A DNA stretch of 64,000 nt from Candidatus Staskawiczbacteria bacterium RIFCSPLOWO2_01_FULL_33_13 (GTDB lineage: Bacteria; Patescibacteriota; Minisyncoccia; Minisyncoccales; Staskawiczbacteraceae), in the NCBI GenBank assembly GCA_001820215.1, contig MHOW01000006.1, positions 47,039 to 111,038 of the forward strand. Reading direction: 5' to 3'. Positions 733 to 59,719 of the stretch are shown here, piece by piece. A program made the translations under genes and the position numbers. Numbering within the stretch: position 1 is the first letter of the stretch; each line of letters starts with the position of its first letter. Below the pieces are notes generated by a model that saw nothing but the letters and a program-made list of their open reading frames with translations, did not search any database and was not told where the DNA came from.

Positions 733-779
733 AACCTTGAATTATGAAAGACCTCGAAAGCATTTCATAATTCAAGGTT
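733..779. repeat. MITE family 1, minimal copy (terminal inverted repeats only)
   Basis: Palindrome aaccttgaattatgaaa ... tttcataattcaaggtt. Same gaaagcatttc core as the TTGAATTACGAAATGC family. Confidence 0.5.
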
Positions 780-916
780 ATCAAAGTACAAAATGAACTC
801 AAATAAAAATGATTTAATGGAAAAAATTTACCCAGTTAAATATTTATGCTTTTTTAAAAAAGCATAAATAAAATCCTTTTGGGATTTTATTTAACGGGGT
901 TAATTTCCCCTTAATA

Positions 917-2221
917 ATGAAGGATAAAACAGAAATTATGTCAAATAATATGATGGATAAGATAATCAGTTTATGCAAAAGGCGGGGTTTTGTGTTTCCC
1001 GGATCAGAAATTTATGGAGGATTAGCTAATTCATGGGACTACGGGCCACTAGGAGTTGAATTAAAAAACAATATTAAACAGCTTTGGTGGAAACGATTTG
1101 TGCATCAGCGCGATGATATGGTTGGCATCGATGCGGCATTAATTATGAACCCAAAAGTGTGGGAAGCTTCAGGACATTTAAAAGAATTTTCTGATCCGTT
1201 AGTGGAGTGTAAAAAATGCCATAAAAGATTCCGCATAGATCAAGTTGAATCAAAAAAATGTCCAGAATGCAGGGGTGAATTATCAGAAGCCAAGCAATTT
1301 AACTTAATGCTTAAAACATTTTTGGGTCCTGTAGAAAATGAAGATTCTATAGTATATTTTAGACCAGAAACTGCGCAAGCCATGTTCGTGGATTTTAAGA
1401 ATGTATTGGAAACTTCACGAAAAAAATTACCGTTTGGGATTGCTCAAATCGGAAAAGCATTTAGAAACGAAATAACTCCTGGAAATTTTATTTTCCGCAC
1501 ACGAGAATTTGAACAAATGGAAATTGAATATTTTATCAAAGAAGAAAATTGGGAAGAAGTTTTTGAACACTGGAAAAAAGAAATGCAATCTTGGATGAAA
1601 AATATTCTTGGGTTGCAAGAGAAAAATATTTCTGAATTATCCGTACCAAATAAGGAACTCGCACATTATTCTAAAAAAACTATTGATTTTGAATATAATT
1701 TTCCTTTTGGCAAAAATGAGCTTTACGGTCTTGCATACAGAACAGATTTTGATTTAAAAAATCATTATAAAGAAGAGCCGTATTTAGACATAGAAAAGAA
1801 TGAAAAGCTTTACCCACATGTGATTGAACCGACTTTCGGTGTAGATAGATCTGTTTTAGCAGTGCTTTGTGATGCTTATATAGAAGAAGCCGAAAGAGTG
1901 GTATTAAAGTTAAAACCGGTATTGGCACCATATAAAGTTGCGGTATTTCCTTTGTTGAAAAATAAGCCTGAGTTAGTGGAAAAAGCAAAAGAAATTTATA
2001 ATAATTTGAAAAAAGAATTCACCGTAGCTTTTGACGACCGTGGTAATATTGGCAAACGATATTATAGTCAGGATGAGATTGGAACACCATATTGTGTAAC
2101 AGTGGATTTTAATACTTTAGAAAAAGATGAAGTAACAGTAAGAGATAGGGATACTATGAAACAAGAAAAAGTAAAAGTGAGCCAATTAATTGATTATATA
2201 AAAGAAAAAATATATGTTTAA
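917..2221 (+). CDS. glyQS: glycine--tRNA ligase (class II, alpha2-type)
   Basis: N-terminus LCKRRGFVFPGSEIYGGLANSWDYGPLG is typical of GlyRS. Length 434 aa. Confidence 0.9.
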   Translation: MKDKTEIMSNNMMDKIISLCKRRGFVFPGSEIYGGLANSWDYGPLGVELKNNIKQLWWKRFVHQRDDMVGIDAALIMNPKVWEASGHLKEFSDPLVECKKCHKRFRIDQVESKKCPECRGELSEAKQFNLMLKTFLGPVENEDSIVYFRPETAQAMFVDFKNVLETSRKKLPFGIAQIGKAFRNEITPGNFIFRTREFEQMEIEYFIKEENWEEVFEHWKKEMQSWMKNILGLQEKNISELSVPNKELAHYSKKTIDFEYNFPFGKNELYGLAYRTDFDLKNHYKEEPYLDIEKNEKLYPHVIEPTFGVDRSVLAVLCDAYIEEAERVVLKLKPVLAPYKVAVFPLLKNKPELVEKAKEIYNNLKKEFTVAFDDRGNIGKRYYSQDEIGTPYCVTVDFNTLEKDEVTVRDRDTMKQEKVKVSQLIDYIKEKIYV

Positions 2222-3485
2222 AAAAACTAAATTAAAAAATGGATTAAGAGTTATTTCGGTTCCAATGAAAAATGCTAATAGCGTAACAGTGCTTGTGTTG
2301 GTTGGAACGGGCTCTAAATATGAAACTAAAGACATAAATGGTATTTCCCATTTTTTGGAGCACATGTTTTTTAAAGGAACTAAAAAGCGCCCAACAACCC
2401 TGAAAATTTCAGAAACACTTGATATGATTGGAGGCCAATATAATGCGTTTACCTCAAAAGAAACTACTGGTTTTTGGGCAAAAGTTGATACAAAACATAC
2501 CGATGTAGCACTAGATTGGATTTCAGATATGTTTTTAAATGCTAAATTTGAAACAGAAGAAATTGATCGCGAAAAAGGGGTAGTAATTGAAGAGTTGAAT
2601 ATGTATTTAGATACACCCACTTCTTATGTGTCAGAGCTTTTTGAAGATTTGTTATATAAAGACCAACCTGCTGGTTGGCGCATTGTAGGAGAAAAAGAAA
2701 ACATTATGGCTTTTGACCGTGATAAGGTGGTTAATTATTATAAAACCCACTACTCAAACGAAAATACGGTTATTTGTATTGCAGGAAATATCAACACAAA
2801 ACAAATTGCAAAGAAAATAGAAAAATATTTTGGCGCTTCAAAAAATCAACAAGCCCTACCAAAGCTAGAGGTAAAAGAATTGCAAGAAAAACCTGAAATT
2901 TTACTGCACAATAAAAAAACTGACCAAACCCATTTTTGCCTAGGCGTAAGGGCCTACGATATGTTTGATAAAAGAAGGCACGCCTTAACTTTAATGTCGG
3001 TTATTTTAGGGGGGAACATGAGCTCGCGCTTATTTATTTCAGTCAGAGAGCGCAATGGATTGGGGTATTATGTGCACACTTCGGTTGATACAACTACTGA
3101 TACGGGGTATCTTGTAACCCAGTCAGGAATTAAAAATAATAGCCTAGAAAAAGCTATTGGCTTAGTATTAGATGAATACCGTGATTTAAAAAATAAAAAA
3201 ATCACCGCAAGAGAATTAAAAAAAGCCAAGGATTATATAAGAGGCAGTATGTCGCTTTCTTTAGATAGCACTGATGCCCAAGCTTCTTTTTATGCTAATC
3301 AAGAAGTAATGGGAAAAGAACTTTTAACTCCAGAAGAAAAAATGAAAATGATTGATAAGGTTTCTATACATGATATAAAGAAGGTAGCTGAAGATATATT
3401 TAAAAATGGAAAATTAAATTTGTCAGTAATAGGCCAATTTAATGAAAAAGACAAAGATCGTCTTTTGCAATTATTAAAAATATGA
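2214..3485 (+). CDS. M16 family zinc peptidase (insulinase-like)
   Basis: Inverted zinc motif HFLEH near the N-terminus. About 420 aa. The stop overlaps the next start (ATGA). Confidence 0.8.
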   Translation: MFKKTKLKNGLRVISVPMKNANSVTVLVLVGTGSKYETKDINGISHFLEHMFFKGTKKRPTTLKISETLDMIGGQYNAFTSKETTGFWAKVDTKHTDVALDWISDMFLNAKFETEEIDREKGVVIEELNMYLDTPTSYVSELFEDLLYKDQPAGWRIVGEKENIMAFDRDKVVNYYKTHYSNENTVICIAGNINTKQIAKKIEKYFGASKNQQALPKLEVKELQEKPEILLHNKKTDQTHFCLGVRAYDMFDKRRHALTLMSVILGGNMSSRLFISVRERNGLGYYVHTSVDTTTDTGYLVTQSGIKNNSLEKAIGLVLDEYRDLKNKKITARELKKAKDYIRGSMSLSLDSTDAQASFYANQEVMGKELLTPEEKMKMIDKVSIHDIKKVAEDIFKNGKLNLSVIGQFNEKDKDRLLQLLKI

Positions 3486-7363: not shown

Positions 7364-7440
7364 TTTTGACCGAAAGTCAAAATTAAAATCCAAAGGATTT
7401 TATTTAACTGGGTAAAAATTTAATCAACGAGGCTATTATA

Positions 7441-13636: not shown

Positions 13637-13682
13637 CACATACGAAAAAAGAAGAGATTAATCTCTTCTTTTTTCGTATGTG
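13637..13682. terminator. perfect palindrome, bidirectional terminator
   Basis: cacatacgaaaaaagaagagattaatctcttcttttttcgtatgtg, between the PAP2 gene (+) and tRNA-Leu (-). Confidence 0.6.
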
Positions 13683-13764
13683 CCCGAGGTGGGAGTTGAA
13701 CCCACATGATATTGCTATCGCGGGATTTTGAGTCCCGTGCGTCTGCCAATTCCGCCACCCGGGC
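13681..13764 (-). tRNA. tRNA-Leu (anticodon CAA)
   Basis: Reverse complement folds as a cloverleaf with a 7-bp acceptor stem GCCCGGG/CTCGGGC. Anticodon loop CUCAAAA. Long variable arm. T-loop GGTTCAACTCC. Confidence 0.85.
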
Positions 13765-13800: not shown

Positions 13801-15843
13801 TCAAGCTTCTTCTTTCTTAAAGTCACAATCTTTACTTGAGCACTTCACTTTTTTAGATTTTGTTTCAACTAATATTAAACCACATGTCGGACAAAACTCA
13901 TTGATTGGCTTATCCCATGCCGCAAAATCACATTTTGGATAATCATCACAACCATAAAATATTTTGCCTCTCCTGGTTTTTTTAGCTACCACCTGCCCCT
14001 TTTTGCATTTTGGACAAATAATATCTATTTTTATTGCCTGCGCTCCCGGATTATCTTTTATAATTGATTCGGTGTGTTTACAATCTGGAAATCCAGTACA
14101 GGCGTAAAATCTACCAAATCGCCCCATTTTATCAACCATATCTTTACCACATTTTGGACATTTTTTATCGGTTTTAATAGTTAAATCTTCTTTTGGAATT
14201 TCATCATATTTTTCTTTCAAATTTTTAGCAAATGGACCATAAAAATCTCCAACGATTTTTTCCCATACATCTTTACCTTCGGCTATTTCATCAAGCCCTT
14301 TTTCCATTTTTGCGGTAAATTCAATATCCACAATTTGCGGAAAATTTTTCACCAGCATTTCATTAACAATAGTTCCCATTTCAGTAGGCGCAAATCTTTT
14401 TTGTTCGTTTTTTGCTATGTAATTGCGGTCTTGTATCGTAGATAAAGTTGGTGCGTAGGTTGAAGGCCTGCCTATTCCATGAGATTCGAGTGCCTTAATC
14501 AGCGAAGCTTCGTTATAGCGGCTAGGAGGCTCGGTATAATGCTGGCTTGGATTTATTTTCACTAATTCCAATATTTCTTTCTCTTGTAATTTTGGCATTT
14601 CATTTTCTGAAAATTTCATCGGATAGATTTTTAAAAAGCCGTCAAATTTAAGCATTTGCCCATTAGCTCCAAAAATATATCCATTTCCCCCATTAATTTC
14701 AATAGAAGTTGAATCAAATATGGCTGGCGTCATTTGCGAGGCAATAAATCTTTGCCAAATTAAAGTATAAAGTTTAAGCTGCGCACCCTCTAATTCACTT
14801 TTCATAGATTCCGGAGTTTTATCCGCATAAGTAGGCCTTATGGCCTCGTGTGCTTCTTGAGCATTACCCTTAGCTTTAAATAGAGTGCCCTTAAAATAAT
14901 CATTGCCAAAAGATTTTTTAATAAACTCTTCAGATGCAATTAAAGAAGATTGGGAAAGATTCAAAGAGTCAGTTCTATGATAAGTAATATGCCCCTGCTC
15001 ATATAGTTTTTGAGCAACCGACATGGTCATTTTTGCAGTAAAATGGAATTTATTAGCCGCAGTTTGCTGCATGGTGCTTGTAGTAAATGGCGGCAGAGGA
15101 TTTCTTTTTGTTTCTTTTTTAGTAATTTTTTCTATTTGATACTTTGCGTTTTCTAAACCGACTAAAATTTCATCAGCATGTTTTTTATTTTTTATCTCTA
15201 GTTTATCAATAATTTTTCCGTCTTTTTTAATTAAAAAAGCAGAAAAATTTTTATTTTCCTTATTAAAGATTGCCTCAATCTCCCAATATTCCTCTGCAAT
15301 AAATTTTTTAATTTCTTCTTCTCGCTCAACTACTAATCGCACCGCCACTGATTGCACGCGCCCAGCAGAAAGCCCTTTTGATATTTTTTTCCATAAAAAA
15401 GGGGATAATTTATACCCCACAATTCTATCTAAAACCCTGCGGGCTTGTTGAGCATCTACCAAGTGCATATCTATCTTTCCAGGTGTTTTTAGAGCCTCTG
15501 CAATAGCGCTTTTAGTAATTTCGTGGAATACAATTCTTTTTGGATCTTTTAAATTCAGGGCCTCCGCCAAATGCCATGAAATAGATTCTCCTTCGCGATC
15601 TTGGTCAGTTGCTAAAATAACCTCATCAGCTAGTTTTGCCTCCTTCTTTAATTCAGCAATAACTTTTTTGGCTTTTGTAGGAATTACATATTTAGGCTCA
15701 AAGTTTTTTTCAACATTCACACCAAGTTCGCGTTTTGGTAAATCGCGCACATGACCAAAAGAAGCCACTACTTTATAGTTTTTTCCTAAAAAGCGGCTGA
15801 TTGTGCGTCCCTTGGTTGGGCTCTCCACCACAAGTAAAATCAT
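13801..15843 (-). CDS. topA: DNA topoisomerase I
   Basis: Toprim N-terminus LVVESPTKGRTI. Several C-terminal C4 zinc ribbons (CPKCGK..., CPTCG...). Confidence 0.9.
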   Translation of the reverse strand: MILLVVESPTKGRTISRFLGKNYKVVASFGHVRDLPKRELGVNVEKNFEPKYVIPTKAKKVIAELKKEAKLADEVILATDQDREGESISWHLAEALNLKDPKRIVFHEITKSAIAEALKTPGKIDMHLVDAQQARRVLDRIVGYKLSPFLWKKISKGLSAGRVQSVAVRLVVEREEEIKKFIAEEYWEIEAIFNKENKNFSAFLIKKDGKIIDKLEIKNKKHADEILVGLENAKYQIEKITKKETKRNPLPPFTTSTMQQTAANKFHFTAKMTMSVAQKLYEQGHITYHRTDSLNLSQSSLIASEEFIKKSFGNDYFKGTLFKAKGNAQEAHEAIRPTYADKTPESMKSELEGAQLKLYTLIWQRFIASQMTPAIFDSTSIEINGGNGYIFGANGQMLKFDGFLKIYPMKFSENEMPKLQEKEILELVKINPSQHYTEPPSRYNEASLIKALESHGIGRPSTYAPTLSTIQDRNYIAKNEQKRFAPTEMGTIVNEMLVKNFPQIVDIEFTAKMEKGLDEIAEGKDVWEKIVGDFYGPFAKNLKEKYDEIPKEDLTIKTDKKCPKCGKDMVDKMGRFGRFYACTGFPDCKHTESIIKDNPGAQAIKIDIICPKCKKGQVVAKKTRRGKIFYGCDDYPKCDFAAWDKPINEFCPTCGLILVETKSKKVKCSSKDCDFKKEEA

Positions 15844-16949
15844 TTTGAAAATTTATTAATAATATTATATTTATGTATTCCCAGTGCTGAAGCTTTGTGC
15901 TGAATTTCTTGCCATTTTCTACCGGGAAATAGGGATAATAGTTTACTTTTCGGATATGTTCTATAAAACTTTCGTATAATTTCTTCCTCTTCTTTTGTGT
16001 AACCCTTTCTGTATCTTATTTCTACCAGAGAGGCTCTTTGGGCAAGTTTAAATTTCCTTTTAATGTATAGTGTAGAATTCGTGTAAAGATAATCTATTAG
16101 AGTTTTTGCTGAATTTGACCTATACGCTATATAAAAAAGAAACTGACTATTTTCATCTTTTTTTACGCTACATATTTTTGAATAAAGATTAAATGTATTA
16201 AGAAAATGATTCTGTATAAAAGTTATAGTATTTTTCCCTCCGCAAACACTTATGGTGGGGTGATTTCTTTTATCGAAATAAATGCTACCATCACCATCTA
16301 TAACACCTCGTATGAAATCTTTTATATATTCGCGGGGAACAATTGGAACATTTTCCCTTAAACTTTTCCTATATATAATACCCAATTTCTTAAGATCATC
16401 GACAATTATCTGACTAGTTATGCCGAGGTGAAAGGCATTTAGAGAAGGAGAAATTTTGTGGTTTGAAGATAATTCTTTTTTTATTTTTTCTAAAATATCA
16501 ATATCTCTTTTCTGTACTCCAAACTTCAAAGCATCACTATAACCCTTGTATATTCCTTTGACAATACATCCATCAGCCAGAATAAAACCAAGAATATAGG
16601 CCATTTCAGAAGACCATGTTTTAAAATAATTTTCATTAACCGCTAATCGGGGGTGGTTTCTGTTTTGTTTTAATCCCAATCTTTCTCCTTGTGCCCATAT
16701 AGCAGTTTTAGACCTTCTGGGTAAAAATTTTAAAAGTTCTTGTATGTTATGGGTGGGGAAATACTTGTGCAATATTTTATTATCTTTTAATTGCCATAAC
16801 TTTGCCGAAGGAAGCCTTAAGCTTAATGCCTTTGCAACAATGGTAGGTTTAGTTCGATCGGGAAACATTGTAATTAAATCACTTACCCTTTTTACTGGAT
16901 AATATTCTTTCAGGAGAGCAATTTCTTTTTGTGACCATATTCTACTCAT
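15840..16949 (-). CDS. free-standing LAGLIDADG-family homing endonuclease-like protein
   Basis: Two LAGLIDADG-type motifs (ILGFILADGCI and FIRGVIDGDGSIY). Repeated HTH-like modules at both ends. The stop overlaps the topA start (ATGA). Confidence 0.65.
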   Translation of the reverse strand: MSRIWSQKEIALLKEYYPVKRVSDLITMFPDRTKPTIVAKALSLRLPSAKLWQLKDNKILHKYFPTHNIQELLKFLPRRSKTAIWAQGERLGLKQNRNHPRLAVNENYFKTWSSEMAYILGFILADGCIVKGIYKGYSDALKFGVQKRDIDILEKIKKELSSNHKISPSLNAFHLGITSQIIVDDLKKLGIIYRKSLRENVPIVPREYIKDFIRGVIDGDGSIYFDKRNHPTISVCGGKNTITFIQNHFLNTFNLYSKICSVKKDENSQFLFYIAYRSNSAKTLIDYLYTNSTLYIKRKFKLAQRASLVEIRYRKGYTKEEEEIIRKFYRTYPKSKLLSLFPGRKWQEIQHKASALGIHKYNIINKFSK

Positions 16950-17026
16950 GCCCTCATTATACTATAATTTTGGGCTTTCTACTATCACTAAATCCATATT
17001 TTTTTAATTTGATATTTAAAAATTAT

Positions 17027-17890
17027 TTATACAATAGTATATACATTGCCGCCTAGGTTTCGTATCTTACCCGAAATTTCCATTAAGGCAAGTGAAGTTA
17101 CTACTAAAGAAGCATTTAGTTTTGTTTTCTCAATTATTTTGTCAATATATAACGCTTCTTCTTTTAGTGCGGCGAAAATAAGCTGTTCTTGCATATTTTC
17201 GGACGCAAAAATTTTTTGGGAAACTTTCTCTGCCTCAACTCCCAATACATCTAAAATATCTTTTGAACTTTCAACCAGTGTTGCCCCCTCTTTTATTAAT
17301 TTATTCGGGCCCTGTGAATTCAACGAAAAAATTTGGCCGGGTACCGCAAATAATTTCTTTTTTTGTTTTATTGCATAATTTGCGGTAATTAATGATCCTG
17401 ATTTCTGCTTTGCCTCAACGACCAAAACTCCCAAAGACAATGCTGATATTATTCTGTTTCTTTTGGGAAAAGAAAAAACAGATCCGTGTGTGCCAGGTGG
17501 TAGCTCCGAAATTAAACAACCATGATTTTCAATTATTTTTCTTGATAATTCTAAGTTTTGCTGGGGGTATATGCTTTTTTCATCTAATCCTGTGCCTAAC
17601 ACCGCAATGGTTATTTTCTTTTTTTCAATGCAAATTTTATGAGCAAAAGTATCTATGCCGGGCGCCATTCCTGAAACAATAACTAATCCTGCATCCACTA
17701 ATTCTCCTGTAATCTGTAAGGTTGCTTGCTGACCATACAAAGAAGGACGCCTTGTCCCAACAATCCCAAAACAATTTTCATTTTTTGGTAAACTTCCTCT
17801 ATGATACAAAACTTTAGGCGCATCAGGAATTTTTTTTAATAATTCCGGATAACTTTTATCATTTATTGAAATTTCCTGTATGTCTTCCAT
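17027..17890 (-). CDS. dprA: DNA processing protein DprA/Smf
   Basis: GIVGTRRPSLYG...SGMAPGIDT Rossmann-like DprA core. Confidence 0.85.
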   Translation of the reverse strand: MEDIQEISINDKSYPELLKKIPDAPKVLYHRGSLPKNENCFGIVGTRRPSLYGQQATLQITGELVDAGLVIVSGMAPGIDTFAHKICIEKKKITIAVLGTGLDEKSIYPQQNLELSRKIIENHGCLISELPPGTHGSVFSFPKRNRIISALSLGVLVVEAKQKSGSLITANYAIKQKKKLFAVPGQIFSLNSQGPNKLIKEGATLVESSKDILDVLGVEAEKVSQKIFASENMQEQLIFAALKEEALYIDKIIEKTKLNASLVVTSLALMEISGKIRNLGGNVYTIV

Positions 17891-17966
17891 TAATGAATTA
17901 TAACAGATAAACCTAAGTAAACAAAAAATGGCAAAAAGCCATTTTTATATATAATCAGCAAAATTA

Positions 17967-19037: not shown

Positions 19038-19343
19038 TTATTTATTCTTAGCTGATTTTTTTATTGTTTTTTTAGGCTTCTTATCTTTTTCTTCTAGTTT
19101 TTCATTTTTCAACTCGGGTGCATCGCTAGGAGATTTTGTCTCTTTTTTATTTAATTTACTATACATTTGGGCTATCATTTCTTCCTGTTTTTTAAAATCT
19201 AAAAACTGAGTCCGTATTCGGGCTTTTTCTGATCTTATAAATCTTCTTGTTGAATTAGACAATTTTTTTGTATAGTTTTTTTCCATATATAAAAGTTTAT
19301 TAAAACAAAAAATGGTTCTTCTAAAACCATTCCTGTTTTGCAT
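19038..19343 (-). CDS. hypothetical Lys-rich basic protein
   Basis: Open frame. Highly basic K-rich C-terminus. The start may be at the internal Met. Confidence 0.3.
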   Translation of the reverse strand: MQNRNGFRRTIFCFNKLLYMEKNYTKKLSNSTRRFIRSEKARIRTQFLDFKKQEEMIAQMYSKLNKKETKSPSDAPELKNEKLEEKDKKPKKTIKKSAKNK

Positions 19344-19434
19344 TGTATACTAAAACAAAGTTTATATCAAGTATTCGCCGCAAAACAAAACTCTCTTTTT
19401 GTGATCCATTTTCTATATGCTTTTTATTGTCGAC

Positions 19435-19611
19435 TTTGAATTACGAAATGCTTTCTAGGCCTGCCTGCCGGCAAGCAGGCATTTTTTTCAAATTTGGAGG
19501 TGAAAATTTGATAGAATTATTTTACCTAGTAAACTAGGTAAAATAATTATTGCGAATTTTTAACCCAAATTTGGATAAAAGACCTGAAATATGCTTTTAT
19601 TGTGCATTTCG
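19435..19611. repeat. MITE family 1, long copy with nested GC hairpin
   Basis: Terminal repeats tttgaattacgaaatgc / gcatttcgtaattcaaag. Internal hairpin tacctagtaaactaggta. Extra GC hairpin gcctgcctgccggcaagcaggc followed by T7. Confidence 0.6.
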
Positions 19612-19637
19612 TAATTCAAAGCTATCGACAATATATT

Positions 19638-20666
19638 CTATCGACCCCTAAGCTTACTTTGAGTATTCACAATACTTATTTCAAGCGTCCTGATTTGAGT
19701 CGTCATATTTTGTAATTCAAGAGTAATACCAAATGACCTTCTATTAAGAGTAGCAGTTAATTCATCTATTTGTGATCTAATTGATTTTATTTTTTCTTCT
19801 TCCCTCAATCTATATTGTTTTTGTTTTGCGCTTTCTGAATCCTTCCCTTTTCCACTAGCATAATCCTCTTTGGCTCGTGAAACCGCGTTAGCACTCAATA
19901 AAGATTCAAGCTCTTTTAATTTGTTTTGCAATGACCTTTTTGTAAGACTATCGGCTAAGTCACCTATTTGTAATTTAGTTGATTCTATTTCTCTTTCTAT
20001 ATTTAATCTATCTTGTTTTTCTTTTCCTGATTCTTCGCTTCTTGTGGGAAGTCCACGAGCAGAATCCCCTATGGCTAATGCAACTGTGGTAGCACTCCAT
20101 AAAGATCTAAGCCTTCCTAATTCTTTTTGCATCGCGTTAATCTCTTTGCGCCCATTAAATATCGCTTCATTAAGATTAATATACAATCTCGTCCTCTCTG
20201 ATATTTGCTGGGCCAACCCCGACCTTAACTCTTGTTTTGTTTTTGGTCCTTCTTGTTTTTGTCCTTGTTGATTTTTATTTCCTTGCGCCTCAGTATTTCC
20301 AACAACACCAGCTAAAAAAGCTGTGGCAAGAATAGATCCTCCAATCTTTTTAAACAACCCCCCACCTTTTTTGGCCAATTTGGGTTTTGATCTTTGTTCT
20401 CCTTGTAATATTTCTACCGCCCCCATATTTTTTTTAAAACTAGAACCTTCACCCTCTTGCCCCATTATTTCTTTTAATTCTGTAGCTAATCTTTCTGCAT
20501 CTGCCATAATTTGATCAGGATTTAAATCTTCGCCTTCAGCTCTAATGTCACCCGCTTCCACCCCACCCCTCAAACTAAAATCGTCTTCATGCAAATCTGA
20601 ATTTGGTAAATCTTTGTTATGCTTTGGCAATTCTTCTTCTGATTCTATTCTCCTTTCGTTAAACAT
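19638..20666 (-). CDS. hypothetical acidic / coiled-coil protein with one TM segment
   Basis: Acidic N-terminus. GGGLFKKIGGSILATAFLAGVVG hydrophobic segment. Long heptad-like C-terminus. Confidence 0.35.
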   Translation of the reverse strand: MFNERRIESEEELPKHNKDLPNSDLHEDDFSLRGGVEAGDIRAEGEDLNPDQIMADAERLATELKEIMGQEGEGSSFKKNMGAVEILQGEQRSKPKLAKKGGGLFKKIGGSILATAFLAGVVGNTEAQGNKNQQGQKQEGPKTKQELRSGLAQQISERTRLYINLNEAIFNGRKEINAMQKELGRLRSLWSATTVALAIGDSARGLPTRSEESGKEKQDRLNIEREIESTKLQIGDLADSLTKRSLQNKLKELESLLSANAVSRAKEDYASGKGKDSESAKQKQYRLREEEKIKSIRSQIDELTATLNRRSFGITLELQNMTTQIRTLEISIVNTQSKLRGR

Positions 20667-38809: not shown

Positions 38810-39823
38810 ATGTCAAGTACTATTATAGAAAACCCAGGTACGGGCAATGATATTTTAGATTCTGCCTTAAGGCCCAAAAAATGGCAAGATTATGTGGGCC
38901 AAGAAAAAATTAAGGACAATTTAAAAATTATTTTAACCGCAGCAAAACAAAGAGATCAATCTCCTGATCATTTATTGTTTTATGGCAATTCTGGGCTTGG
39001 CAAAACCACGCTCGCCCACTTGGTAGCCCTAGAAATGGGAAAACAAATTAGAATTACCACAGGGCCTGCTATTGAAAGAGCTGGGGATTTGGCGGCAATT
39101 TTAACTAATCTTCAAGAAGGCGATGTACTGTTTTTAGACGAGATACACAGAATGCACAAAAGCGTAGAAGAATATATTTACCCTGCAATGGAAGACTATA
39201 AGCTAAACCTGATTTTAGGCAAAGGCCCAATGGCACGCACCATGGAGTTAAAATTGCCCCGATTTACTTTAATAGGAGCTACCACACGGCCCGGCCTTTT
39301 ATCAACTCCTCTAAGAAACCGTTTTGGCGCCACTTTTCAGCTTAATTTTTACAAACCTGAGGATATTGAAAAAATAGTTGAAAAATCCGCCCAGATTTTA
39401 CAGATACAAATTGATGCTGAGGCAATTAAAATAATTGCCAAAAGATCTCGTTTTACTCCAAGAGTAGCAAACAGATTATTAAAAAGAGCACGCGACTTTG
39501 CTCAAGTAAAAAACCAAGGTATTATCACAAAAGAAATTGCAGAACAATCTTTACATTCACTGGAAGTTGATAGGATGGGTTTAGAACCAGGGGATATAAA
39601 AATTTTAATGGCTTTAATAGAAAAATTTGATGGGGGGCCCGTAGGATTGCAATCTTTAGCCGCCGCAGCAATGGAAGAAGAGGATACTATTTTAGACATC
39701 TACGAGCCGTATTTAATGCAATGCGGACTTATAGAAAGAACTCCCAAAGGCAGAATTGCCTCCCGACTTGCCTATGAACACCTGGGATTAAAATATAAAA
39801 AAGCACAGAATAATTTACTGTGA
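38810..39823 (+). CDS. ruvB: Holliday junction DNA helicase RuvB
   Basis: [13 protein letters not shown]...[11 protein letters not shown]. Sensor motifs. Confidence 0.9.
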
Positions 39824-39847
39824 ATTACGAAAGCATTTCGTAATTCA
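39821..39847. repeat. MITE family 1 minimal palindrome
   Basis: tgaattacgaaagcatttcgtaattca is a perfect palindrome overlapping the ruvB stop. Confidence 0.5.
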
Positions 39848-39858
39848 AGGCAAATAAC

Positions 39859-41034
39859 ATGAAGTGTAGTAGTTTATTAATATTTTTTGTCATTTTAATT
39901 TTGCCCCTTAGCGCTTTTTCAGTTGAAACTCCTAGTGTTGTAATTAACGAAATTGCCTGGATGGGAAGCGTTACTTCGGCAAATGATGAATGGATAGAAT
40001 TAAAAAACAATACTAATGAAGATATAAACCTAGAGGGATGGTTTTTAAAAACAACTGATGAAAAAATAAAAATATATTTAACAGGAAAAATACCCGCTAA
40101 TGGATTTTACCTACTAGAAAGAACCGATGAAAATTCTGTAATGAATATTAAGGCAGATATTATTTATACTGGGGCGCTTAGTAATAGCGGACAATCCTTA
40201 GAATTATATCAAAACTCAAGCATATTAATTGATCACTTAGGATTTAGCTCAAAATGGCCATCAGGAGATAACACTACAAAACAAACCATGGAAAGAATTG
40301 ATAATAGTAATTGGCAAACTAGCAAAAATCCCGGGGGCACTCCTGGAGGCGAAAATAGTATTATCCAATTAATAGAAATTTTAGAAATAAAACCAGTAGT
40401 GCCAGAAGAAATAAAAAACTTAAAAGAGCCAACCACATACCCTGATGGAATTTTTATTAACGAAATAATGCCGGCTCCCGAAGGCCCCGATGACACAAAC
40501 GAATGGATTGAATTATATAATAACAATAACTTTGCTGTTGATATATCTTACTGGAAACTACAAGATACAAAGGGCGCAATAACAAATTACACGCTCCCAA
40601 AAAATACTATATTACAAAGTAATGGGTACTTGGTTTTAAAAAGAAGCCAAACAAAAATAACACTAAACAATGATGAAGATGTTATAAATTTAATTTTACC
40701 AAATGGGAGAATAGCCGATTCAACTTCTTATAAAGAAGCTTCTAAAAACCAATCTTATAGCAAAACACTGTCTGGCTTTACATGGACCGAAAATACAACT
40801 CCGGGATCAATAAATAATATATCAGCAAGCTCTTTTGAAAAAATAGTATTGTTAAATAAAGAAAAACCTGATAATAGTAAAACAAATACTAACTTTAACA
40901 CCGCAAGCATTACCGATGGAGTTACATCTTTAACCAAAACAAACCCTTGGTTTTTATTTTTGACTGCCCTCGCAGTTGCTATCGTTTCTGGAATAATAAT
41001 TCTTGTAGTAAAGTTGAAAATATTTAAAAAATAG
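39859..41034 (+). CDS. lamin tail domain-containing surface protein
   Basis: Signal peptide. Two lamin-tail-like modules (VVINEIAWMGS...NDEWIELKN and IFINEIMPAPEG...NEWIELYN). C-terminal TM anchor. Confidence 0.55.
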   Translation: MKCSSLLIFFVILILPLSAFSVETPSVVINEIAWMGSVTSANDEWIELKNNTNEDINLEGWFLKTTDEKIKIYLTGKIPANGFYLLERTDENSVMNIKADIIYTGALSNSGQSLELYQNSSILIDHLGFSSKWPSGDNTTKQTMERIDNSNWQTSKNPGGTPGGENSIIQLIEILEIKPVVPEEIKNLKEPTTYPDGIFINEIMPAPEGPDDTNEWIELYNNNNFAVDISYWKLQDTKGAITNYTLPKNTILQSNGYLVLKRSQTKITLNNDEDVINLILPNGRIADSTSYKEASKNQSYSKTLSGFTWTENTTPGSINNISASSFEKIVLLNKEKPDNSKTNTNFNTASITDGVTSLTKTNPWFLFLTALAVAIVSGIIILVVKLKIFKK

Positions 41035-42731: not shown

Positions 42732-42742
42732 TTACGAATTAC

Positions 42743-42923
42743 CTTAAATTACGAAATGATTTTTAGTTATTTATTAGGGAATTTTGTTTCTGGTGAAGGA
42801 AAAATATAAAAAGGTAACTACGCTTACCTTTTTACATTTTTACAAAGCCAGAGACAAAATTAACAATAAATAGCAAAAACTTGCATTTTCTATGGTCATT
42901 TCGTAATTTAAGGTATTATGCAT
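42743..42923. repeat. MITE family 1 copy (divergent interior)
   Basis: Terminal repeats cttaaattacgaaatga / tcatttcgtaatttaagg. Confidence 0.5.
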
Positions 42924-46380: not shown

Positions 46381-46776
46381 AATAATATATAATATATTAA
46401 ATATCTTATTGTTATTAGGGTAGTGATTTTTGTTAATTTTTAAATTTTTATTATATTGTCGTATGTGTAAATTTTTAAAAAATAAACTGTGAATAAAATA
46501 GTCTAAAAATATATTAATAAAATATGTGAATTATTTTTATAATTTTTTATAGATAGTTTGTTATGTGTTTTATCCACCATATATTCTATTTTTTTAATTA
46601 CTTTGAATTACGAAATGCTTTCTAGGTATTTTTTTCAAATTTTAGAATGAAAATTTGATAGAATTATTTTACCTAGTAAGCTAGGTAAAATAATTATAGC
46701 GGGTTTTCAACTAAAATTTGGAGAAAAGACCAGAAATTTGCTTTCCAAAGGGCATTTCGTAATTCAAAGTAATATT
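46381..46776. other. oriC-like AT-rich region with DnaA-box-like 9-mers
   Basis: Very AT-rich stretch 46381-46560. ttatccacc at 46570-46578 and ttatccact at 46777-46785. MITE copy embedded. Confidence 0.4.
46602..46769. repeat. MITE family 1 copy
   Basis: Terminal repeats tttgaattacgaaatgc / gcatttcgtaattcaaag. Internal hairpin tacctagtaagctaggta. Lacks the GC hairpin of copy 19435. Confidence 0.6.
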
Positions 46777-48132
46777 TTATCCACTATACACTTTTTGTTT
46801 TATAAGGTTTAATTCTTCTGTTAATTTATTATTTTCTTCACTTTCTTGTAGTATTTTTTTGTATGCGTATATGACTGTAGTATGATCCTTGCCCCCAAAT
46901 TTTCTTGCAATTGCAGGAAATGAATATTTTAATTCTTTTCTTAATAAAAACATTGCTATTTGTCTTGGTCTTACAATTTCTTTGCGTCTTGTTTGGTCAA
47001 AAAGATTTTTTTCATCTAAATTATAAAATTTAGCAACCGTTTCAATTATTTTTTTATAGTTTGCAACATCAAAGGGAGAAAATACAAAACCTCGTAATAG
47101 CTTTTTTGCAACTTCTAAATTCAACACATTGTTGTTGATTTTATGGTAAATTAATAAGCTATTTAAGGCTCCCTCTAAATCTCTGATATTCTTTTTAACA
47201 TTTGAGGCGATGTATTCTAAAATATCTTCTGGTAATTCCATATTTTTCTCTTGAAGTTTGGTTTTAAGTATTACAAGCCTTGTTTCATAATCAGGTAGGC
47301 TTACATCAATAGTCATCCCGCCTCCAAATCTTGATTTAAGCCTTTCTTCTAACTCTGATATGGCATTGGGGGGCCTGTCAGACGAAAGGATGATTTGTTT
47401 ATTTTTTTCATATAAAGAATTAAACACATGAAAAAATTCTTCTTGGCTTTTGTTTTTTCCCGATATAAATTGTATATCATCAATAATGAGCACATCTATA
47501 GGGGTAAAACTAGCCTTAAAGCTTTCCATGCTATTGCTCCTAATAGCTGAAACAATATTAGAAACAAGTTTTTCAGAAGGAATATATTTTACTTTATTTT
47601 TTTTATTATTACTGGCTATTTTATTCCCAATTGACTGCATTAAATGGGTTTTGCCTAATCCAACTCCTCCATATATAAATAAGGGGTTGTAGGTGTGTCC
47701 TGGGTTTTCAGATACTGCTAAAGCTGCCGCGTGAGCCAATTCATTAAATCCACCTACTACAAAATTTTCAAAGGTATAACGAGGGTTAAGATTTGTTTCT
47801 TTGTTAATTTTAAACTCATCAAATTTTAACTGTTCTATATTTATATCACTTTCTAGTTTTTCTTTTGTTTCAAAGTTTTTTGATGGTTGTGGGTTAATTT
47901 TAAATTCTAATTCTTTGATAGTGTTGTCTATGTCATGCATTGTTTTAAGTATTAACTTGTAATACTTATTATTCAGCCACTCTTTAGAAAAGGCATTTGG
48001 AACCGAAATTACTATTTTTCCATTTTCTTTAGATGTTATTTCAGTGTTTTGAAACCAGGTTGCAAAATTTGCCTTAGAAATAAAAAGTTGCATTTGCGCC
48101 AAAACTGATTGCCAAAGCTCACTATTGTCCAT
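46777..48132 (-). CDS. dnaA: chromosomal replication initiator DnaA
   Basis: AAA+ Walker A GGVGLGKTHL. C-terminal DnaA-box-binding domain. Confidence 0.9.
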   Translation of the reverse strand: MDNSELWQSVLAQMQLFISKANFATWFQNTEITSKENGKIVISVPNAFSKEWLNNKYYKLILKTMHDIDNTIKELEFKINPQPSKNFETKEKLESDINIEQLKFDEFKINKETNLNPRYTFENFVVGGFNELAHAAALAVSENPGHTYNPLFIYGGVGLGKTHLMQSIGNKIASNNKKNKVKYIPSEKLVSNIVSAIRSNSMESFKASFTPIDVLIIDDIQFISGKNKSQEEFFHVFNSLYEKNKQIILSSDRPPNAISELEERLKSRFGGGMTIDVSLPDYETRLVILKTKLQEKNMELPEDILEYIASNVKKNIRDLEGALNSLLIYHKINNNVLNLEVAKKLLRGFVFSPFDVANYKKIIETVAKFYNLDEKNLFDQTRRKEIVRPRQIAMFLLRKELKYSFPAIARKFGGKDHTTVIYAYKKILQESEENNKLTEELNLIKQKVYSG

Positions 48133-48222: not shown

Positions 48223-48231
48223 TGTGGATAA
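48223..48231 (-). promoter_or_regulatory. perfect DnaA box (TTATCCACA on the minus strand)
   Basis: tgtggataa, 90 bp upstream of dnaA. Confidence 0.45.
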
Positions 48232-52030: not shown

Positions 52031-53824
52031 TTATTTTAATTTTCTTCTTGCTTCTTTTATTTTTTCAACTTCTTGGGGGCTGGTAGTTATTATTTGATCT
52101 TCTGTATAGCTGGCTTTTATATTAATATATACATGTTTTTTACCCGCAAAAAACAACCCTTCTCCAACAGGAGCACTTAATAATAATTCTTCTTCTTGCT
52201 TGGTTAAATCAAATATTTTTTCTAATACATCAATAGCCGCAGTGGATTGTTTTAACAGCATTTGCAAAGATGAATTGGTGATAATAGCCTTTCCATAACC
52301 TGAACCCATAAAATCTTCCACATCTTGGGTAATAGTGGTTACTCCCATCCAGTATTTTCTGCATCTTTTTATTAAGCTGAATAAAAATGAAGCTCCGTCT
52401 TCTGATTGCATCAGCCACCAAGCCTCATCAACCACTAAAATTCTCTTTTTTATTTTTGTTCTTACAATATTCCATATGTATCGCATTACAATAAACAAAG
52501 CAATGGGTTTTAAAGATTCTTCCATGTCTCTTATTCCAAATACAATGAATTTTTTATCAATAGTAATATTAGATTTTTGGTTAAAAAATCCAGCAAAAGT
52601 CCCTTCGGTAAATTTTTTAAGGCGTCTTGCTAAAGATTCTGCTCCTTCCATATTTTCTAAAATTTCTCCAAAATCAGACATTAGTGGTATTTTTTCCTCC
52701 CAGGTAGCAGGGTCACTTTGAGGTGTAATATCTCTTATTGCGTAAGTTTCTGTGAGGGCTTGGTCTAAAATACTATCTTCTTCAGCAGTTAATCCTCCAA
52801 GCATTATTCTTAAAAGTCCCACCAAATTTATAATATTTGACCTTAGTATGTCTTCTGGATTATCATCTGGGCCTGGGGTAGGAAGGTCAAAAGGATTTAC
52901 ATGGTTTCCAGAAGACAAAGATATTTTAAAGAAATTACCCCCTATGCCATCGGCTAAAAATTCATATTCATTTTCGGGGTCAATTACAATTACATCAATA
53001 TCCATCATCAAGTATCTTAAAATTTCTAATTTAACCGCGTATGATTTACCCGATCCGGATTTTGCAAAAACAACCATATTGGCGTTTTCTAAGGTGAACC
53101 TATCAAACAATACAAGTGAATTATTGTGCCGGTTAATGCCATATAAAATTCCTTCATTAGAGCTTAAGTCAAAAGAAACAAATGGAAACGCAGTTGAAAG
53201 CGGCTCTGTGTTCATTGGAACATTAATGCCAATTAAGTCCATTCCATAAGGGCTGGCTGAAATAAAGCCTTCTTTTTGCTTAAATAAAGCTGGTTTTATA
53301 TAAATTAAACGAGGTTCAAAAATTGACCTTAGGGTAGTTTCAACTTCACGCATTTCTTCTTCTGAATTTTGATATACGGTAATATAAAGCCCAAATCTAA
53401 ACATTTTTTCTTGGGCGGTTATTATTTTATCTCTAAGGTTTTCAATATCTTGGTAGCCGGTTTCAAGAGCTGGATCGCGAATGAGTCCCTTTTCTTGTCT
53501 TTCCATTAATTCTGAAGATACTTGGGTAACTTTTGACCGTAATTTTTTTAAAATTAATTCACTGCTTACCGGATGTATAAAAAAAGATATATCCATTGGT
53601 ACATTTAGGTTTATTGCGGGAGAAAGCCAGCCGGTATTTAAATATCTTGGATAAGAAAATATAAAAAAAGATTTGGCGATTTTTTCTCCAAGCTTTATAT
53701 AGTTTTGATTTATGCCAACATAAGAAGGCGCTATAACATCCTTTATATTAAGAATTTCTTCTTGAAATATTTTATCATCAATATCAATATTTCTTTTATT
53801 TTTATTTAAAAAATTAAAATTCAC
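52031..53824 (-). CDS. VirB4/TrbE/CagE-family conjugal-transfer-type ATPase
   Basis: Walker A FAKSGSGKSYA. DPENEY and VVDEAW (Walker B) motifs. Confidence 0.8.
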   Translation of the reverse strand: MNFNFLNKNKRNIDIDDKIFQEEILNIKDVIAPSYVGINQNYIKLGEKIAKSFFIFSYPRYLNTGWLSPAINLNVPMDISFFIHPVSSELILKKLRSKVTQVSSELMERQEKGLIRDPALETGYQDIENLRDKIITAQEKMFRFGLYITVYQNSEEEMREVETTLRSIFEPRLIYIKPALFKQKEGFISASPYGMDLIGINVPMNTEPLSTAFPFVSFDLSSNEGILYGINRHNNSLVLFDRFTLENANMVVFAKSGSGKSYAVKLEILRYLMMDIDVIVIDPENEYEFLADGIGGNFFKISLSSGNHVNPFDLPTPGPDDNPEDILRSNIINLVGLLRIMLGGLTAEEDSILDQALTETYAIRDITPQSDPATWEEKIPLMSDFGEILENMEGAESLARRLKKFTEGTFAGFFNQKSNITIDKKFIVFGIRDMEESLKPIALFIVMRYIWNIVRTKIKKRILVVDEAWWLMQSEDGASFLFSLIKRCRKYWMGVTTITQDVEDFMGSGYGKAIITNSSLQMLLKQSTAAIDVLEKIFDLTKQEEELLLSAPVGEGLFFAGKKHVYINIKASYTEDQIITTSPQEVEKIKEARRKLK

Positions 53825-53860
53825 TTTAGTATTTTTTTAATATTATTAAAAAATTAATTT

Positions 53861-53895
53861 CAAAATTCAAAAACCTAAATTCTAAACAAATTCAA
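53861..53895. repeat. left arm of 34-bp inverted repeat bracketing the four-helix-bundle ORF
   Basis: caaaattcaaaaacctaaattctaaacaaattcaa. Confidence 0.65.
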
Positions 53896-53931
53896 AATCC
53901 AAATTTTCTAAATCCAAAACTATTTAATATT

Positions 53932-54294
53932 TTATTTACTATTCTCTAAAATAGATCCAAATATTTTCATTAGTTCAATGCATTCTTTAATGAGCGATTC
54001 TTTGTCTTGTTGATTTTCTTTTAATGGTTCAGATAAATTTAACCACAACCTGCTTTCTTTAGATTCTTTTCTGCAAATCTTTATTCTCATTAGAAAGTCT
54101 TTTTTGCCTAGAGATTCATTTGCTTCAATATAATTGGCTGCCTGTGAACCGGAGGATCTAACGAGTTGTTTTCCGTATTCTATATTTGAAATTGTTCTGA
54201 GAAGAGCCTTAACATACTCTCTTGTTTTTTGAGCAAATAGATAAGTTCTATCTTCTAAATCATATTGCGGTTTTGAATTTTGGATTTCATTCAT
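53932..54294 (-). CDS. four-helix-bundle protein (23S rRNA intervening-sequence protein family)
   Basis: ...YLFAQKTREYVKALLRTISN...QLVRSSGSQAANYIEANESLGKKDFLMRIKICRKESKESRLWL matches the four-helix-bundle pattern. Confidence 0.6.
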   Translation of the reverse strand: MNEIQNSKPQYDLEDRTYLFAQKTREYVKALLRTISNIEYGKQLVRSSGSQAANYIEANESLGKKDFLMRIKICRKESKESRLWLNLSEPLKENQQDKESLIKECIELMKIFGSILENSK

Positions 54295-54328
54295 TTGAAT
54301 TTGTTTAGGATTTAGGTTTTTGAATTTT
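54295..54328. repeat. right arm of inverted repeat (33/34 match to the left arm)
   Basis: ttgaatttgtttaggatttaggtttttgaatttt. Its reverse complement equals the left arm with 1 mismatch. Confidence 0.65.
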
Positions 54329-54361
54329 GGATTTTTGTTGAAATAAATTTCAAATTAGGAT

Positions 54362-59000: not shown

Positions 59001-59600
59001 TGAGTCAATAAACAATCCTACTAGCACCACGGAAAAATTAATTAAAATGGCGGTTATTATTATTTTAGGCAGTAAGGCTTTTGCCTTATCAACCATAAAT
59101 CCTAAAATCATCATGGTGCTGGCGGCTATAAATCCTAATACTATTAGCATATTGGCCCAGCTTTTTACCACATTCCATGCGGTGAGAAATTCGGCTCTCC
59201 TAGTTATTGAAAGGTCGGGGTTGTTTATCATTTGGTCTAATACAAACCTGAATAAAACCGCAGATCCATACGCTATATAGAAAAAGATAATAGAGATAAG
59301 ATTAGATATCAATACGACAATAGTAGCAGGCCAGTTAGTGCTTCCCGACATTGCTTCTGAAAATATTTCCCACCCTGTTGCAACAAGGTTTGCCATAAAT
59401 GCAATTCCTTGTGCGGTAAGAACTACGGCATTACCGCTACCAATAACAATATTGCCAAGTGTGGTGCTAAAATCAGTAAACCAGTTAGCTGAAGCTATAT
59501 TTGGCAGAGAAATTCCTATTAAAAAAGCAAACAAAAAAACAGAAAATAGTATTTTCTTTTGTTTAAATATTTTTAATATAGACCTAAAAAAATCAGGCAT
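56091..59600 (-). CDS. VirB6/TrbL-like polytopic membrane protein with about 750-aa charged C-terminal extension
   Basis: N-terminal about 400 aa with at least 6-8 TM helices. Long K/E-rich soluble C-terminus. Confidence 0.45.
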   Translation of the reverse strand: MPDFFRSILKIFKQKKILFSVFLFAFLIGISLPNIASANWFTDFSTTLGNIVIGSGNAVVLTAQGIAFMANLVATGWEIFSEAMSGSTNWPATIVVLISNLISIIFFYIAYGSAVLFRFVLDQMINNPDLSITRRAEFLTAWNVVKSWANMLIVLGFIAASTMMILGFMVDKAKALLPKIIITAILINFSVVLVGLFIDSSNIIMRSLTVGGDQEANIVLIIDDVWNETIWELEPIAETNIYKAFAYFGINLLFDALYFFVAFILFCFALLLIQRYVLLAILFVLSPLAFALNVFPYEKAQKLFGDWWGQFLKYCFIGLGAAFFLNLSVNVLRAYNWVFTGDTVTALVNLTFQFIIVVGFLAIGMHLTYKSSGPIASAVMSVATKIASAIITGGTSTAMAGMKRTGITDGLKDVKNKVADSRLVSWGRDKIYGKGKSETVKKDREAKELDPVREQFKNIKDVKKLASIAENGTAAESAVATEMLARNGTLDAIKDKSQRDRIVKQAVSQGVSARDIASFDPDYATLNKGAMAEAQRKLIGTTAVGSVNLANNKTGRDLQYTEDDIVNPNSLLGTMMKKQAEQIVTRQAASTADRKFATEASDIDLRTMVDEGGWRGAAATDELTRRELLHTKETDPNKIDQLLKENDYYGLSTRRNYQKQDIRMNAFDKEAVKRIQSETDSDGIHIFGEDSAAKEEVVRRKAETLNAYDIERLDSSVLGGKYGAVIARQIANSPQQMRAVDDKAGPKLKKAVYASLVADVDDPEYIKNLAQIPSAMMEDAISGATKEVKEEIRKRFYTTKAIHRAGNSPEGFKDLEKYVQGVGTSSEEAENLRAFVTGANKLPEQNIEEAKPDDTKPYDPQMRPGEGSKIVGVKGNFGEIRMSPVDEAKIEKDETTEALGVVSKIGGGYLSEEEQKQLAGEVAGLRAKVRRKEILRKKRVDEGQLSPGERDESIKILDELKEYGIDEQTPFISHKEAYNHVEAKKMKQEGIKLTTNERDGLIEKIVDLKKSNKSTAKQYDASGVPPTFPSFGELKAVFEDSNSFNKDPKYYSGRFEEEKRKILREKLTAKRRAASKATDKDKAQDIAQWGGKYGFKTNPIEYLKRIKARIEGKEEFTDMEKAKIAERMIELNKRIKETGREYMSLEDAYEVIADEMKGEIMQEKLKEKG

Positions 59601-59613
59601 AATTTCTTACTAC

Positions 59614-59719
59614 TTTGAGTTACGAAATGCTCAAATAAAAAATGGGTTTCTGGTCTTTTATCCAAATTTTCAACCTAAAATTTGAAAAAAATACCTCGAA
59701 AGCATTTCGTAACTCAAAG
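59614..59719. repeat. MITE family 1 short copy
   Basis: Terminal repeats tttgagttacgaaatgc / gcatttcgtaactcaaag. Interior nearly identical to copy 23303. Confidence 0.6.

Follow-up and report, generated by a model that had tools for sequence, protein, structure and literature searches.

The Correia elements (NEMIS) of Neisseria are intergenic repeats of 100-160 bp that are bounded by terminal inverted repeats (TIRs) and form a long RNA stem-loop. They occur in full and internally deleted forms, with 26-bp TIRs and a TA duplication, and to our knowledge no autonomous parent has been established for them. Correia elements provide functional promoters and an IHF site, and one of them drives uvrB in N. 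gonorrhoeae (PMC3184786). In the Bacillus cereus group, the mobile intergenic repeats known as bcr1 (~155 bp) have compensatory changes that keep their structure at the RNA level (PMC3184786), and a Cardinium endosymbiont carries MITECca01/ISCca4, where a MITE (miniature inverted-repeat transposable element) of ~240 bp, found in one lineage, is derived from the IS982 family of insertion sequences (ISs) (PMC9769881). Here we describe family 1, a set of seven short repeats in a stretch of 64,000 nucleotides (hereafter the window) from Candidatus Staskawiczbacteria bacterium RIFCSPLOWO2_01_FULL_33_13 (GCA_001820215.1, contig MHOW01000006.1, positions 47,039 to 111,038). We consider it very probable that these repeats are non-autonomous DNA transposons, i.e., MITEs, bounded by the TIR of a clade of ~1.0-kb IS982-family ISs that is common in Patescibacteria.

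Family 1 shares features with each of the known systems. Like MITECca01 (PMC9769881), its elements are short and non-coding and have inverted repeats that match those of an IS982-family IS; both are thought to be maintained by intact parent copies. The host of MITECca01 is an endosymbiont of the Bacteroidota, whereas those of family 1 are free or episymbiotic Patescibacteria, and in place of one lineage we find the same 18-bp end in ~30 metagenome-assembled genomes (MAGs) that bear several candidate-phylum labels (among the matches listed). Neither a covarying hairpin over the whole element nor a shared cassette was reported for MITECca01. The long RNA stem-loop, the intergenic placement and the size recall the Correia elements, and one family 1 copy likewise lies 7 bp 5' of uvrB. 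Unlike the Correia elements, family 1 generates target-site duplications (TSDs) of 6-8 bp and has an 18-bp TIR and an IS982-type parent, and its promoter role is putative. Like bcr1, it is a mobile intergenic repeat with short duplications and compensatory base changes, but bcr1 is cruciform-like, with two stem-loops and 5-bp duplications, whereas family 1 forms a single long hairpin, duplicates 6-8 bp and has a DDE-type parent.

IS982-derived MITEs, long RNA hairpins, element-borne promoters and compensatory changes are all already known for bacterial MITE-like repeats. What could be new is a cassette that is common to families with different ends and kept on one strand. A literature search found no paper that links MITEs to the candidate phyla radiation (CPR) or Patescibacteria, and the suggestion of an initial annotation of the window that the family is undescribed is plausible. 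CPR genomes are usually described as tiny and streamlined; here a single family makes up ~1.4% of 64 kb and lies beside replication and repair genes, including the putative origin region.

Family 1 and its probable IS982-type parents

Allowing up to 2 mismatches, the 16-mer TTGAATTACGAAATGC matches the window (32% GC) 12 times against an expectation of 0.09, and none of 100 shuffled sequences reached 12 matches. Read from the sequence, the seven elements are 30-188 bp long, within the size expected of bacterial MITEs (less than ~300-400 bp), and share the 18-bp TIR C[CT]TTGAATTACGAAATGC ... GCATTTCGTAATTCAA[AG]G, in short form C[CT]TTG...CAA[AG]G (Table 1). All are intergenic, and they occur in both orientations, as initially annotated. 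A family profile (nhmmer) found no copies in the window beyond the seven, and no open reading frame (ORF) of at least 100 aa lies inside the copies, except for spurious extensions of adjoining genes. The coordinates in the initial annotation were mostly accurate to within 1-3 bp, with two ends misplaced by ~10 bp (19611, now 19621, and 42923, now 42913). The copy at 39821, previously described as a perfect palindrome of 27 bp, is not strictly so but a stem-loop made of one complete and one truncated TIR.

ISs of the IS982 family are ~1 kb long and have a single ORF, short TIRs and a short duplication of 3-9 bp (ISfinder). An element with the same ends as family 1 was found in locus L081. It is 1,001 bp long, is flanked by the 6-bp TSD TATTTA and has one ORF of 277 aa, which matches Pfam DDE_Tnp_1_3 (1e-30; 107 bits, cut-off 27) and, by a small margin, the NCBIfam IS982 equivalog NF033520 (133.4 bits, cut-off 130). 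In locus L103, the last 40 codons of a 55%-identical transposase are still joined to the TIR, as an IS remnant. A metagenome scan returned 80 loci, and from these (51 copies) and three other loci we extracted 54 two-ended ISs of 970-1,072 bp, with ends C[CT][TG]TGAATTACGAAAT... and one ORF of 268-277 aa. In several of the 54, all 18 terminal bases are identical to the window TIR, and where flanks are available the duplications are 6-7 bp (seen in L081, L126, L130 and L158). Many of the copies come from JGI samples that also hold the window organism (Ga0209541, Ga0209542, Ga0209211 and C687J35174), and on contig L173 a family 1 MITE lies 45 bp from a full IS.

At E < 1e-10 the L081 transposase has 2,296 relatives, one of which has copies in several different genomic contexts. 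Most are on ~1-kb contigs, as expected because ISs are repeats that break assemblies. The parent resembles the IS982 family in its ~1.0-kb length, single ORF, DDE_Tnp_1_3 domain, short TIRs and short AT-rich duplications. Unlike typical members, it is at most 33% identical to those borne on plasmids (29-33% for the annotated genes) and only narrowly exceeds the family cut-off (133 bits vs 130). Judged by these protein comparisons, the parent ISs are best placed as a distant, CPR-associated clade of the family.

In a scan of one genome per species, the exact 16-mer occurs in at least 118 stretches, mostly from Patescibacteria MAGs labelled Staskawicz-, Nealson-, Campbell-, Vogel-, Kerfeld-, Kuenen- and Paceibacteria. 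Among the matches listed, to which the following counts also refer, several contigs per MAG were often hit, frequently at contig ends. Single 16-mer matches in other phyla look like chance. We extracted 75 paired short elements from ~30 Patescibacteria MAGs, and perfect AT-rich direct repeats of 6-8 bp abut 33 of them (16 of 6 bp, 15 of 7 bp and 2 of 8 bp), compared with direct repeats of at least 6 bp at none of 225 shifted controls. The identical 18-bp end across several candidate-phylum labels points to horizontal spread of the parent IS. Multiple paired family 1 elements, spread over several contigs, also occur in several MAGs labelled 'uncultured Gammaproteobacteria' (L008, L073, L087, L104, L070, L089, L091, L080 and L118); unless these labels are wrong, the family extends past Patescibacteria. 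In IMG/VR, the TIR 16-mer gives 35 isolated viral matches, two of them with ~1-kb pairs.

One window copy has an empty counterpart. Assembly GCA_001820135.1 (MHOQ01; locus L001) encodes a DnaA protein identical to that of the window, which is also found in many groundwater metagenome assemblies, and its flanking DNA is 99.95-99.97% identical. The dnaA/dnaN gap of this sister strain is 175 bp shorter, equal to the 169-bp element plus one 6-bp target (TAATAT). The filled site reads ...TAATTA[element]TAATAT..., whereas the empty site, ...TTTTTTTAATATCTTATCC, has a single TAATAT. The flanks are otherwise the same, except for single-base differences beside the junction. A duplication of TA or TAA, of the IS630- or IS5-like kind and guessed from the flanks, was ruled out by the empty site and by the 6-8 bp found in the larger sample. 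TIRs, TSDs, an empty site and an IS982-family parent with identical TIRs, together with the lack of overlap with tRNA genes or Rfam families, bear out the initial annotation of the repeats as a modular MITE family of intergenic gaps, and the presence/absence polymorphism that such a family may show was found at the dnaA/dnaN copy.

Comparison of the window with GTDB loci revealed no orthologous insertion sites; the matches are limited to the elements, apart from two syntenic stretches. In a related Staskawiczbacteria MAG (L090, syntenic with window positions 14006-17891), a 287-bp family 1 element (2189-2475) adjoins the homologue of window gene 17027-17890. The window lacks an element at this place, a presence/absence difference between species.

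We infer that the MITEs are mobilised in trans by an IS982-type transposase. The enzyme from a full-length IS copy would bind both TIRs, and insertion by a staggered cut into AT-rich intergenic DNA would leave the 6-8 bp duplication. The TIRs alone would probably be sufficient, as suggested by copies of 34-43 bp that consist of little else and have duplications. Internal deletions and nested insertions could then account for the 'modular' size classes. The degenerate TSDs of the window copies suggest older insertions, and most of these copies, being fixed in all assemblies, would be old, with the dnaA/dnaN copy still polymorphic.

Seventeen copies of ~170 bp, from at least 8 genomes, can be aligned end to end. 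In the 107-bp window copy, as in a 106-bp copy from Nealsonbacteria, the centre is missing through a deletion between two AAATTTG repeats, and copies of 34-57 bp have little beyond two TIRs. Two identical 35-bp copies occur at different sites of one MAG, one with a perfect 6-bp TSD and the other with a 5/6 near-match. If the TIR-only copies of 34-35 bp moved as such, they would be unusually small mobile elements. The interchangeable modules that had been proposed are apparent in two respects: short forms are internal deletions of the 170-bp form, and the central cassette is common to elements with different ends. Of the two modules named at the outset, the hairpin is the centre of this cassette and the block AAATTTGGAnAAAAGACCnGAAA is the right arm. 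The same TIR also encloses unrelated interiors in other lineages, for example in a 110-bp Campbellbacteria subfamily, and in window copy 42742.

Nesting, which the initial annotation saw in the window, was not seen there but occurs elsewhere. The 338-bp composite at L105 35-372, where an element with ends AGATGGTTGCAAAAGTC and a cassette of its own lies inside the loop of the family 1 central hairpin, flanked by (C)TTTG, is a true nested insertion. Near the left end of copy 19434 a 20-nt GC hairpin has been inserted which, as noted previously, is followed by T7 and missing from copy 46601. A small GC hairpin of the same sort is found in the L031 copy, at another position. The two are of similar sequence (CCTGCCTGCCGGCAAGCAGG at window 19456-19481 and TCTGCCTGTGCAAAAGCAGACAGG at L031 about 1390-1415), and this recurrence may indicate a separate tiny hairpin element.

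Several results weigh against the reading of family 1 as MITEs with IS982-type parents. There is no transposase gene in the 64-kb window, and full ISs are rare in the MAG loci (only L081 and L173). The TSDs of window copies are imperfect (4/6 to 6/7), and, where tested, no presence/absence polymorphism was apparent at six of the seven window sites; copies 19434, 23302 and 59613 are present in all nine assemblies listed per ruvA and ksgA look-up. BLAST of the MITE consensus and the window copies against the 54 IS copies found similarity only in the 18-25 bp ends, and a covariance model of the cassette had no match over 83 IS loci. The MITE interior is thus not a simple deletion derivative of any sampled IS. 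By eye, the right arm resembled the 3' end of AT-rich IS copies, but BLAST did not confirm this. We also considered the cassette as the promoter or leader of the transposase, given a similar layout of -10 box, hairpin and ATG in the ISs, but rejected this because the cassette is absent from the 83 loci.

The repeats and their 1-kb parents break metagenomic assemblies, as seen from the many matches at contig ends and the transposase copies on short contigs. Knowledge of the family helps in the closing of CPR genomes, the correction of gene starts and the tracking of strains by insertion polymorphism.

A long hairpin and a shared cassette

The fold of the 170-bp form is a single long hairpin (-71.9 kcal/mol, z = -12.6; z = -11.4 for copy 19434). 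Over the 17-copy alignment, standard pairs make up 97.2% of cells, and both sides have changed in 33 of 63 pairs, although the relatedness of the sequences (shared ancestry) can inflate such covariation statistics. None of 500 shuffles matched this pairing, slid controls were 33-55% paired, and helix 1, formed by the TIRs, is 98.5% paired. Cells other than Watson-Crick pairs comprise 40 G.U (13 columns) vs 3 A.C (3 columns), and in each of the 17 copies the same strand gives the better fold, by 8 kcal/mol on average. Given this asymmetry, the pairing appears to be kept on one strand and points to a single-stranded form, either RNA or single-stranded DNA (ssDNA). Over the window, Rfam at the gathering threshold and ARAGORN found only a tRNA-Leu (13681-13764), and no match overlaps the copies.

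The central cassette (61-64 nt) consists of a covarying stem, invariant TGATAGAATT, a covarying hairpin, invariant AATTAT[AT]GC and a closing stem, and can be written as TTTGATAGAATT-hairpin-AATTATWGC. Facing one another, the two boxes form an invariant 4x4 internal loop that is non-complementary, AUAG/AUWG. The family 1 profile matches the interior of the element at 22390 (profile positions 39-125, E = 6.5e-13), and the cassette is therefore common to families with different ends. It was found within five kinds of ends, i.e., at least four besides family 1 (Table 1). Among 24 cassettes, 91.8% of cells are paired, 17 of 26 pairs have changed on both sides and none of 500 shuffles did as well. 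A covariance model scores the four window cassettes at 71-76 bits, vs 38-41 bits on the opposite strand. Weaker matches (17-27 bits) include diverged forms in the 32666 copy of the second family and in the centre of copy 42742. None of the 118 cassette pattern matches in IMG/VR has the hairpin (minimum free energy -8.7 kcal/mol at best), and they appear to be chance matches or coding sequence.

So, does the cassette have a function? It is possible, and we suggest it only tentatively, that cassette and one-strand hairpin form a functional module, captured and spread by MITE families. The module would be either a portable promoter or leader, with TGATAGAAT in one direction and GCTATAAT in the opposite one, or a structured site in RNA or ssDNA to which a host or element protein binds. 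Such a role would add to the MITE explanation and is compatible with a MITE origin. In 24 copies within five kinds of ends, the boxes have stayed invariant while the stems diverged with compensatory changes, but shared ancestry can inflate this covariation too. The mismatches (34 G.U and 30 G.A/A.G vs 2 A.C and 7 C.U) and the bit scores of the two strands are consistent with pairing kept on one strand. In support of a promoter, the left box reads as an extended -10 (TGATAGAAT) and the right box, in complement, as GC[TA]ATAAT, placing -10-like boxes on both strands. Copy 23302 fills the gap between the divergent ruvA and uvrB, and both genes must therefore be transcribed from or through it. MITE-borne promoters are also known from the Correia element (PMC3184786). 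Sampled ISs have a -10-like box and a hairpin just 5' of the transposase ATG, a resemblance in layout only, and the cassette itself is missing from the sampled IS leaders.

In 16 of the 22 cases that could be scored, the gene located 5' of the structured strand faces away from it. This weak bias (about p = 0.05), in copies that are not independent, is suggestive only. A transcript that started at the -10-like box would lack the left arm, leaving selection on the whole hairpin unexplained, and the cassette is missing from four of the seven window copies and about two thirds of family 1 copies elsewhere. A bolder version, in which the 64-nt cassette is itself the functional unit (a portable bidirectional promoter or leader, or a strand-specific RNA or ssDNA site), repeatedly captured by nesting in MITEs with at least five kinds of ends, spread through streamlined CPR genomes and now immediately 5' of core genes such as uvrB, ruvA and dnaN, seems to us rather unlikely. 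Together, the long hairpin and the cassette imply some single-stranded (RNA or ssDNA) or promoter-related constraint, which is in part shown. If the cassette is a promoter or structured RNA, it would offer a rare handle on gene regulation in uncultivable organisms.

Unlikely alternatives: terminators, ssDNA transposition and RNA genes

The initial annotation suggested that the elements serve as intrinsic terminators, attenuators or RNA-processing sites at gene boundaries, i.e., that they have been exapted. We consider this improbable. All copies are intergenic, some of them just past stop codons (ruvB, dnaA and ksgA), and each full copy would give a very stable hairpin as RNA from either strand. 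An intrinsic terminator is a GC-rich hairpin with a U-tract behind it, on the transcribed strand and downstream of a gene. However, the single terminator-like combination of GC hairpin and T7, in copy 19434, is antisense to both neighbours (genes 19038-19343 and 19638-20666, both on the - strand), and the other copies lack a U-tract after the stem. None of the seven lies between convergent genes, and several are 7-13 bp 5' of start codons, where termination would be harmful. The sister strain does without the dnaA/dnaN copy in flanks that are otherwise the same apart from the single-base differences beside the junction, and insertion sites vary between species.

Pairing kept on one strand is expected of systems that recognise ssDNA. 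Family 1 might, for example, be a set of REP/PATE-type elements moved as ssDNA by an HUH transposase (IS200/IS605 or RAYT), which would explain the strand-specific hairpin. Long TIRs and TSDs of 6-8 bp are hallmarks of DDE transposition, and HUH elements make no duplication. Family 1 has both hallmarks, it has an identical TIR to an IS that codes for a DDE protein of the IS982 family, and this is the sole kind of transposase found beside the TIRs in the searched loci, where no other ORFs were screened. Movement by an HUH enzyme is very improbable. That the repeats are copies of a non-mobile small RNA gene or regulatory RNA motif is hardly credible: despite their stable covarying structure and conserved boxes, even a relaxed Rfam search gave nothing better than generic plant microRNA hairpins (27 bits, far below the threshold of 150), the genes flanking the copies are unrelated to each other, and the elements show duplications, one empty site and a parent IS whose ends are the same as theirs.

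Gene contexts and further repeats

The gene contexts initially assigned to the elements mostly hold (the ruvA/uvrB gap, the ruvB stop codon, the dnaN/dnaA gap and the vicinity of ksgA), although the element placed 'before ksgA' is in fact downstream of that gene. Copy 23302 occupies nearly the whole 189-bp ruvA/uvrB gap, leaving 13 bp to the ruvA ATG and 7 bp to that of uvrB. The micro copy at 39821 overlaps the ruvB stop codon. An outward TIR end (..TTCAAGG) places AAGG exactly 8 nt 5' of two start codons, the ATG of uvrB and that of the LTD-domain gene at 39859 (23466-23480 and 39847-39861), and with this spacing the family 1 elements may supply the ribosome-binding sites of both genes. Public gene calls begin uvrB at a TTG (23433) inside the element.

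Around the polymorphic copy in the dnaA/dnaN gap are DnaA-box-like 9-mers (46570-46578, 46777-46785, 46488-46496 and 48223-48231). As they flank copy 46601, the element splits the putative origin region, yet it is tolerated. Such 9-mers are not enriched over the window as a whole (27 matches vs 19 expected).

Table 1. Family 1 elements, cassettes and cassette-bearing elements. Positions refer to the window unless a locus is named.
Feature	Position	Strand	Remarks
Mini copy, 43 bp, two TIRs and almost nothing else	735-777	-	Degenerate TSD TTATTAA/TTATCAA (6/7)
Full-length copy, 188 bp, with central cassette and extra 20-nt GC hairpin	19434-19621	+	
GC hairpin followed by T7, inside copy 19434	19462-19488	+	Terminator-like; hairpin itself 19462-19481
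Central cassette of copy 19434: TTTGATAGAATT, covarying hairpin, AATTATTGC	19501-19561	+	72.4 bits
Full-length copy, 169 bp, between divergent ruvA and uvrB	23302-23470	-	TSD TAATAA/TAATAG
Central cassette of copy 23302	23363-23423	-	70.9 bits
Micro copy, complete TIR joined to truncated TIR	39821-39850	-	12-bp stem, 3-nt loop
172-bp copy, TIRs diverged (2 mismatches each), different but also palindromic interior	42742-42913	.	Gap between ruvC and PBP1 gene
Full-length copy, 169 bp, in dnaN/dnaA gap between DnaA-box-like 9-mers	46601-46769	+	No counterpart in sister strain (empty site)
Left TSD copy of element 46601, TAATTA	46595-46600	.	Empty site: TAATAT
Right TSD copy of element 46601, TAATAT	46770-46775	.	
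Central cassette of copy 46601	46648-46708	+	73.1 bits
107-bp internal-deletion form without cassette	59613-59719	-	Between ksgA and 1169-aa gene, 12 bp 5' of the latter's ATG
Copies of 34-35 bp, two abutting TIRs only	L070 3632-3666; L089 2328-2362; L109 263-296		
Second-family element, ends TAGACCTAGTGCATAAAGG, with cassette	22390-22551	+	Cassette at 22439-22502; 75.7 bits
Related TAAGACCTCTTGC... elements with cassette	L045, L106		
Elements ending AGAAACTGTTTAATAA with cassette	L031		
Elements ending ATCTGTTGCGTAATAATT with cassette	L100		
Element ending AGATGGTTGCAAAAGTC with cassette	L105		Nested in family 1 copy

The window contains further repeats. Three copies of a second MITE-like family, with ends TAGACCTACTGCGTAAAG...CTTTACGCAGTAGGTCTA, lie at 22390-22551, 28190-28292 and 32666-32853; neither a parent element nor a clear duplication was identified for them. 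The cassette is present in the first copy, and a different interior (..CAAAACATTCCTTGATCAGCAGAGCATCCCGAAGGCTGATTTTCGTAACG..) is common to the other two. At 53856-53896 and 54294-54334, 41-nt inverted repeats (93% complementary) flank ORF 53932-54294 (- strand), whose 120-aa product scores 36.6 bits against the Pfam family of 23S rRNA-intervening-sequence proteins. A TraG/HerA-like ATPase is encoded by the next downstream ORF of this strand (52031-53824). This arrangement may be a small mobile or invertible cassette. Finally, the 47-nt sequence AAAGTCAAAATTAAAATCCAAAGGATTTTATTTAACTGGGTAAAAAT at 7373-7419 recurs inverted 27 kb away, at 34446-34492, with 87% complementarity, and this pair may belong to another repeat family.

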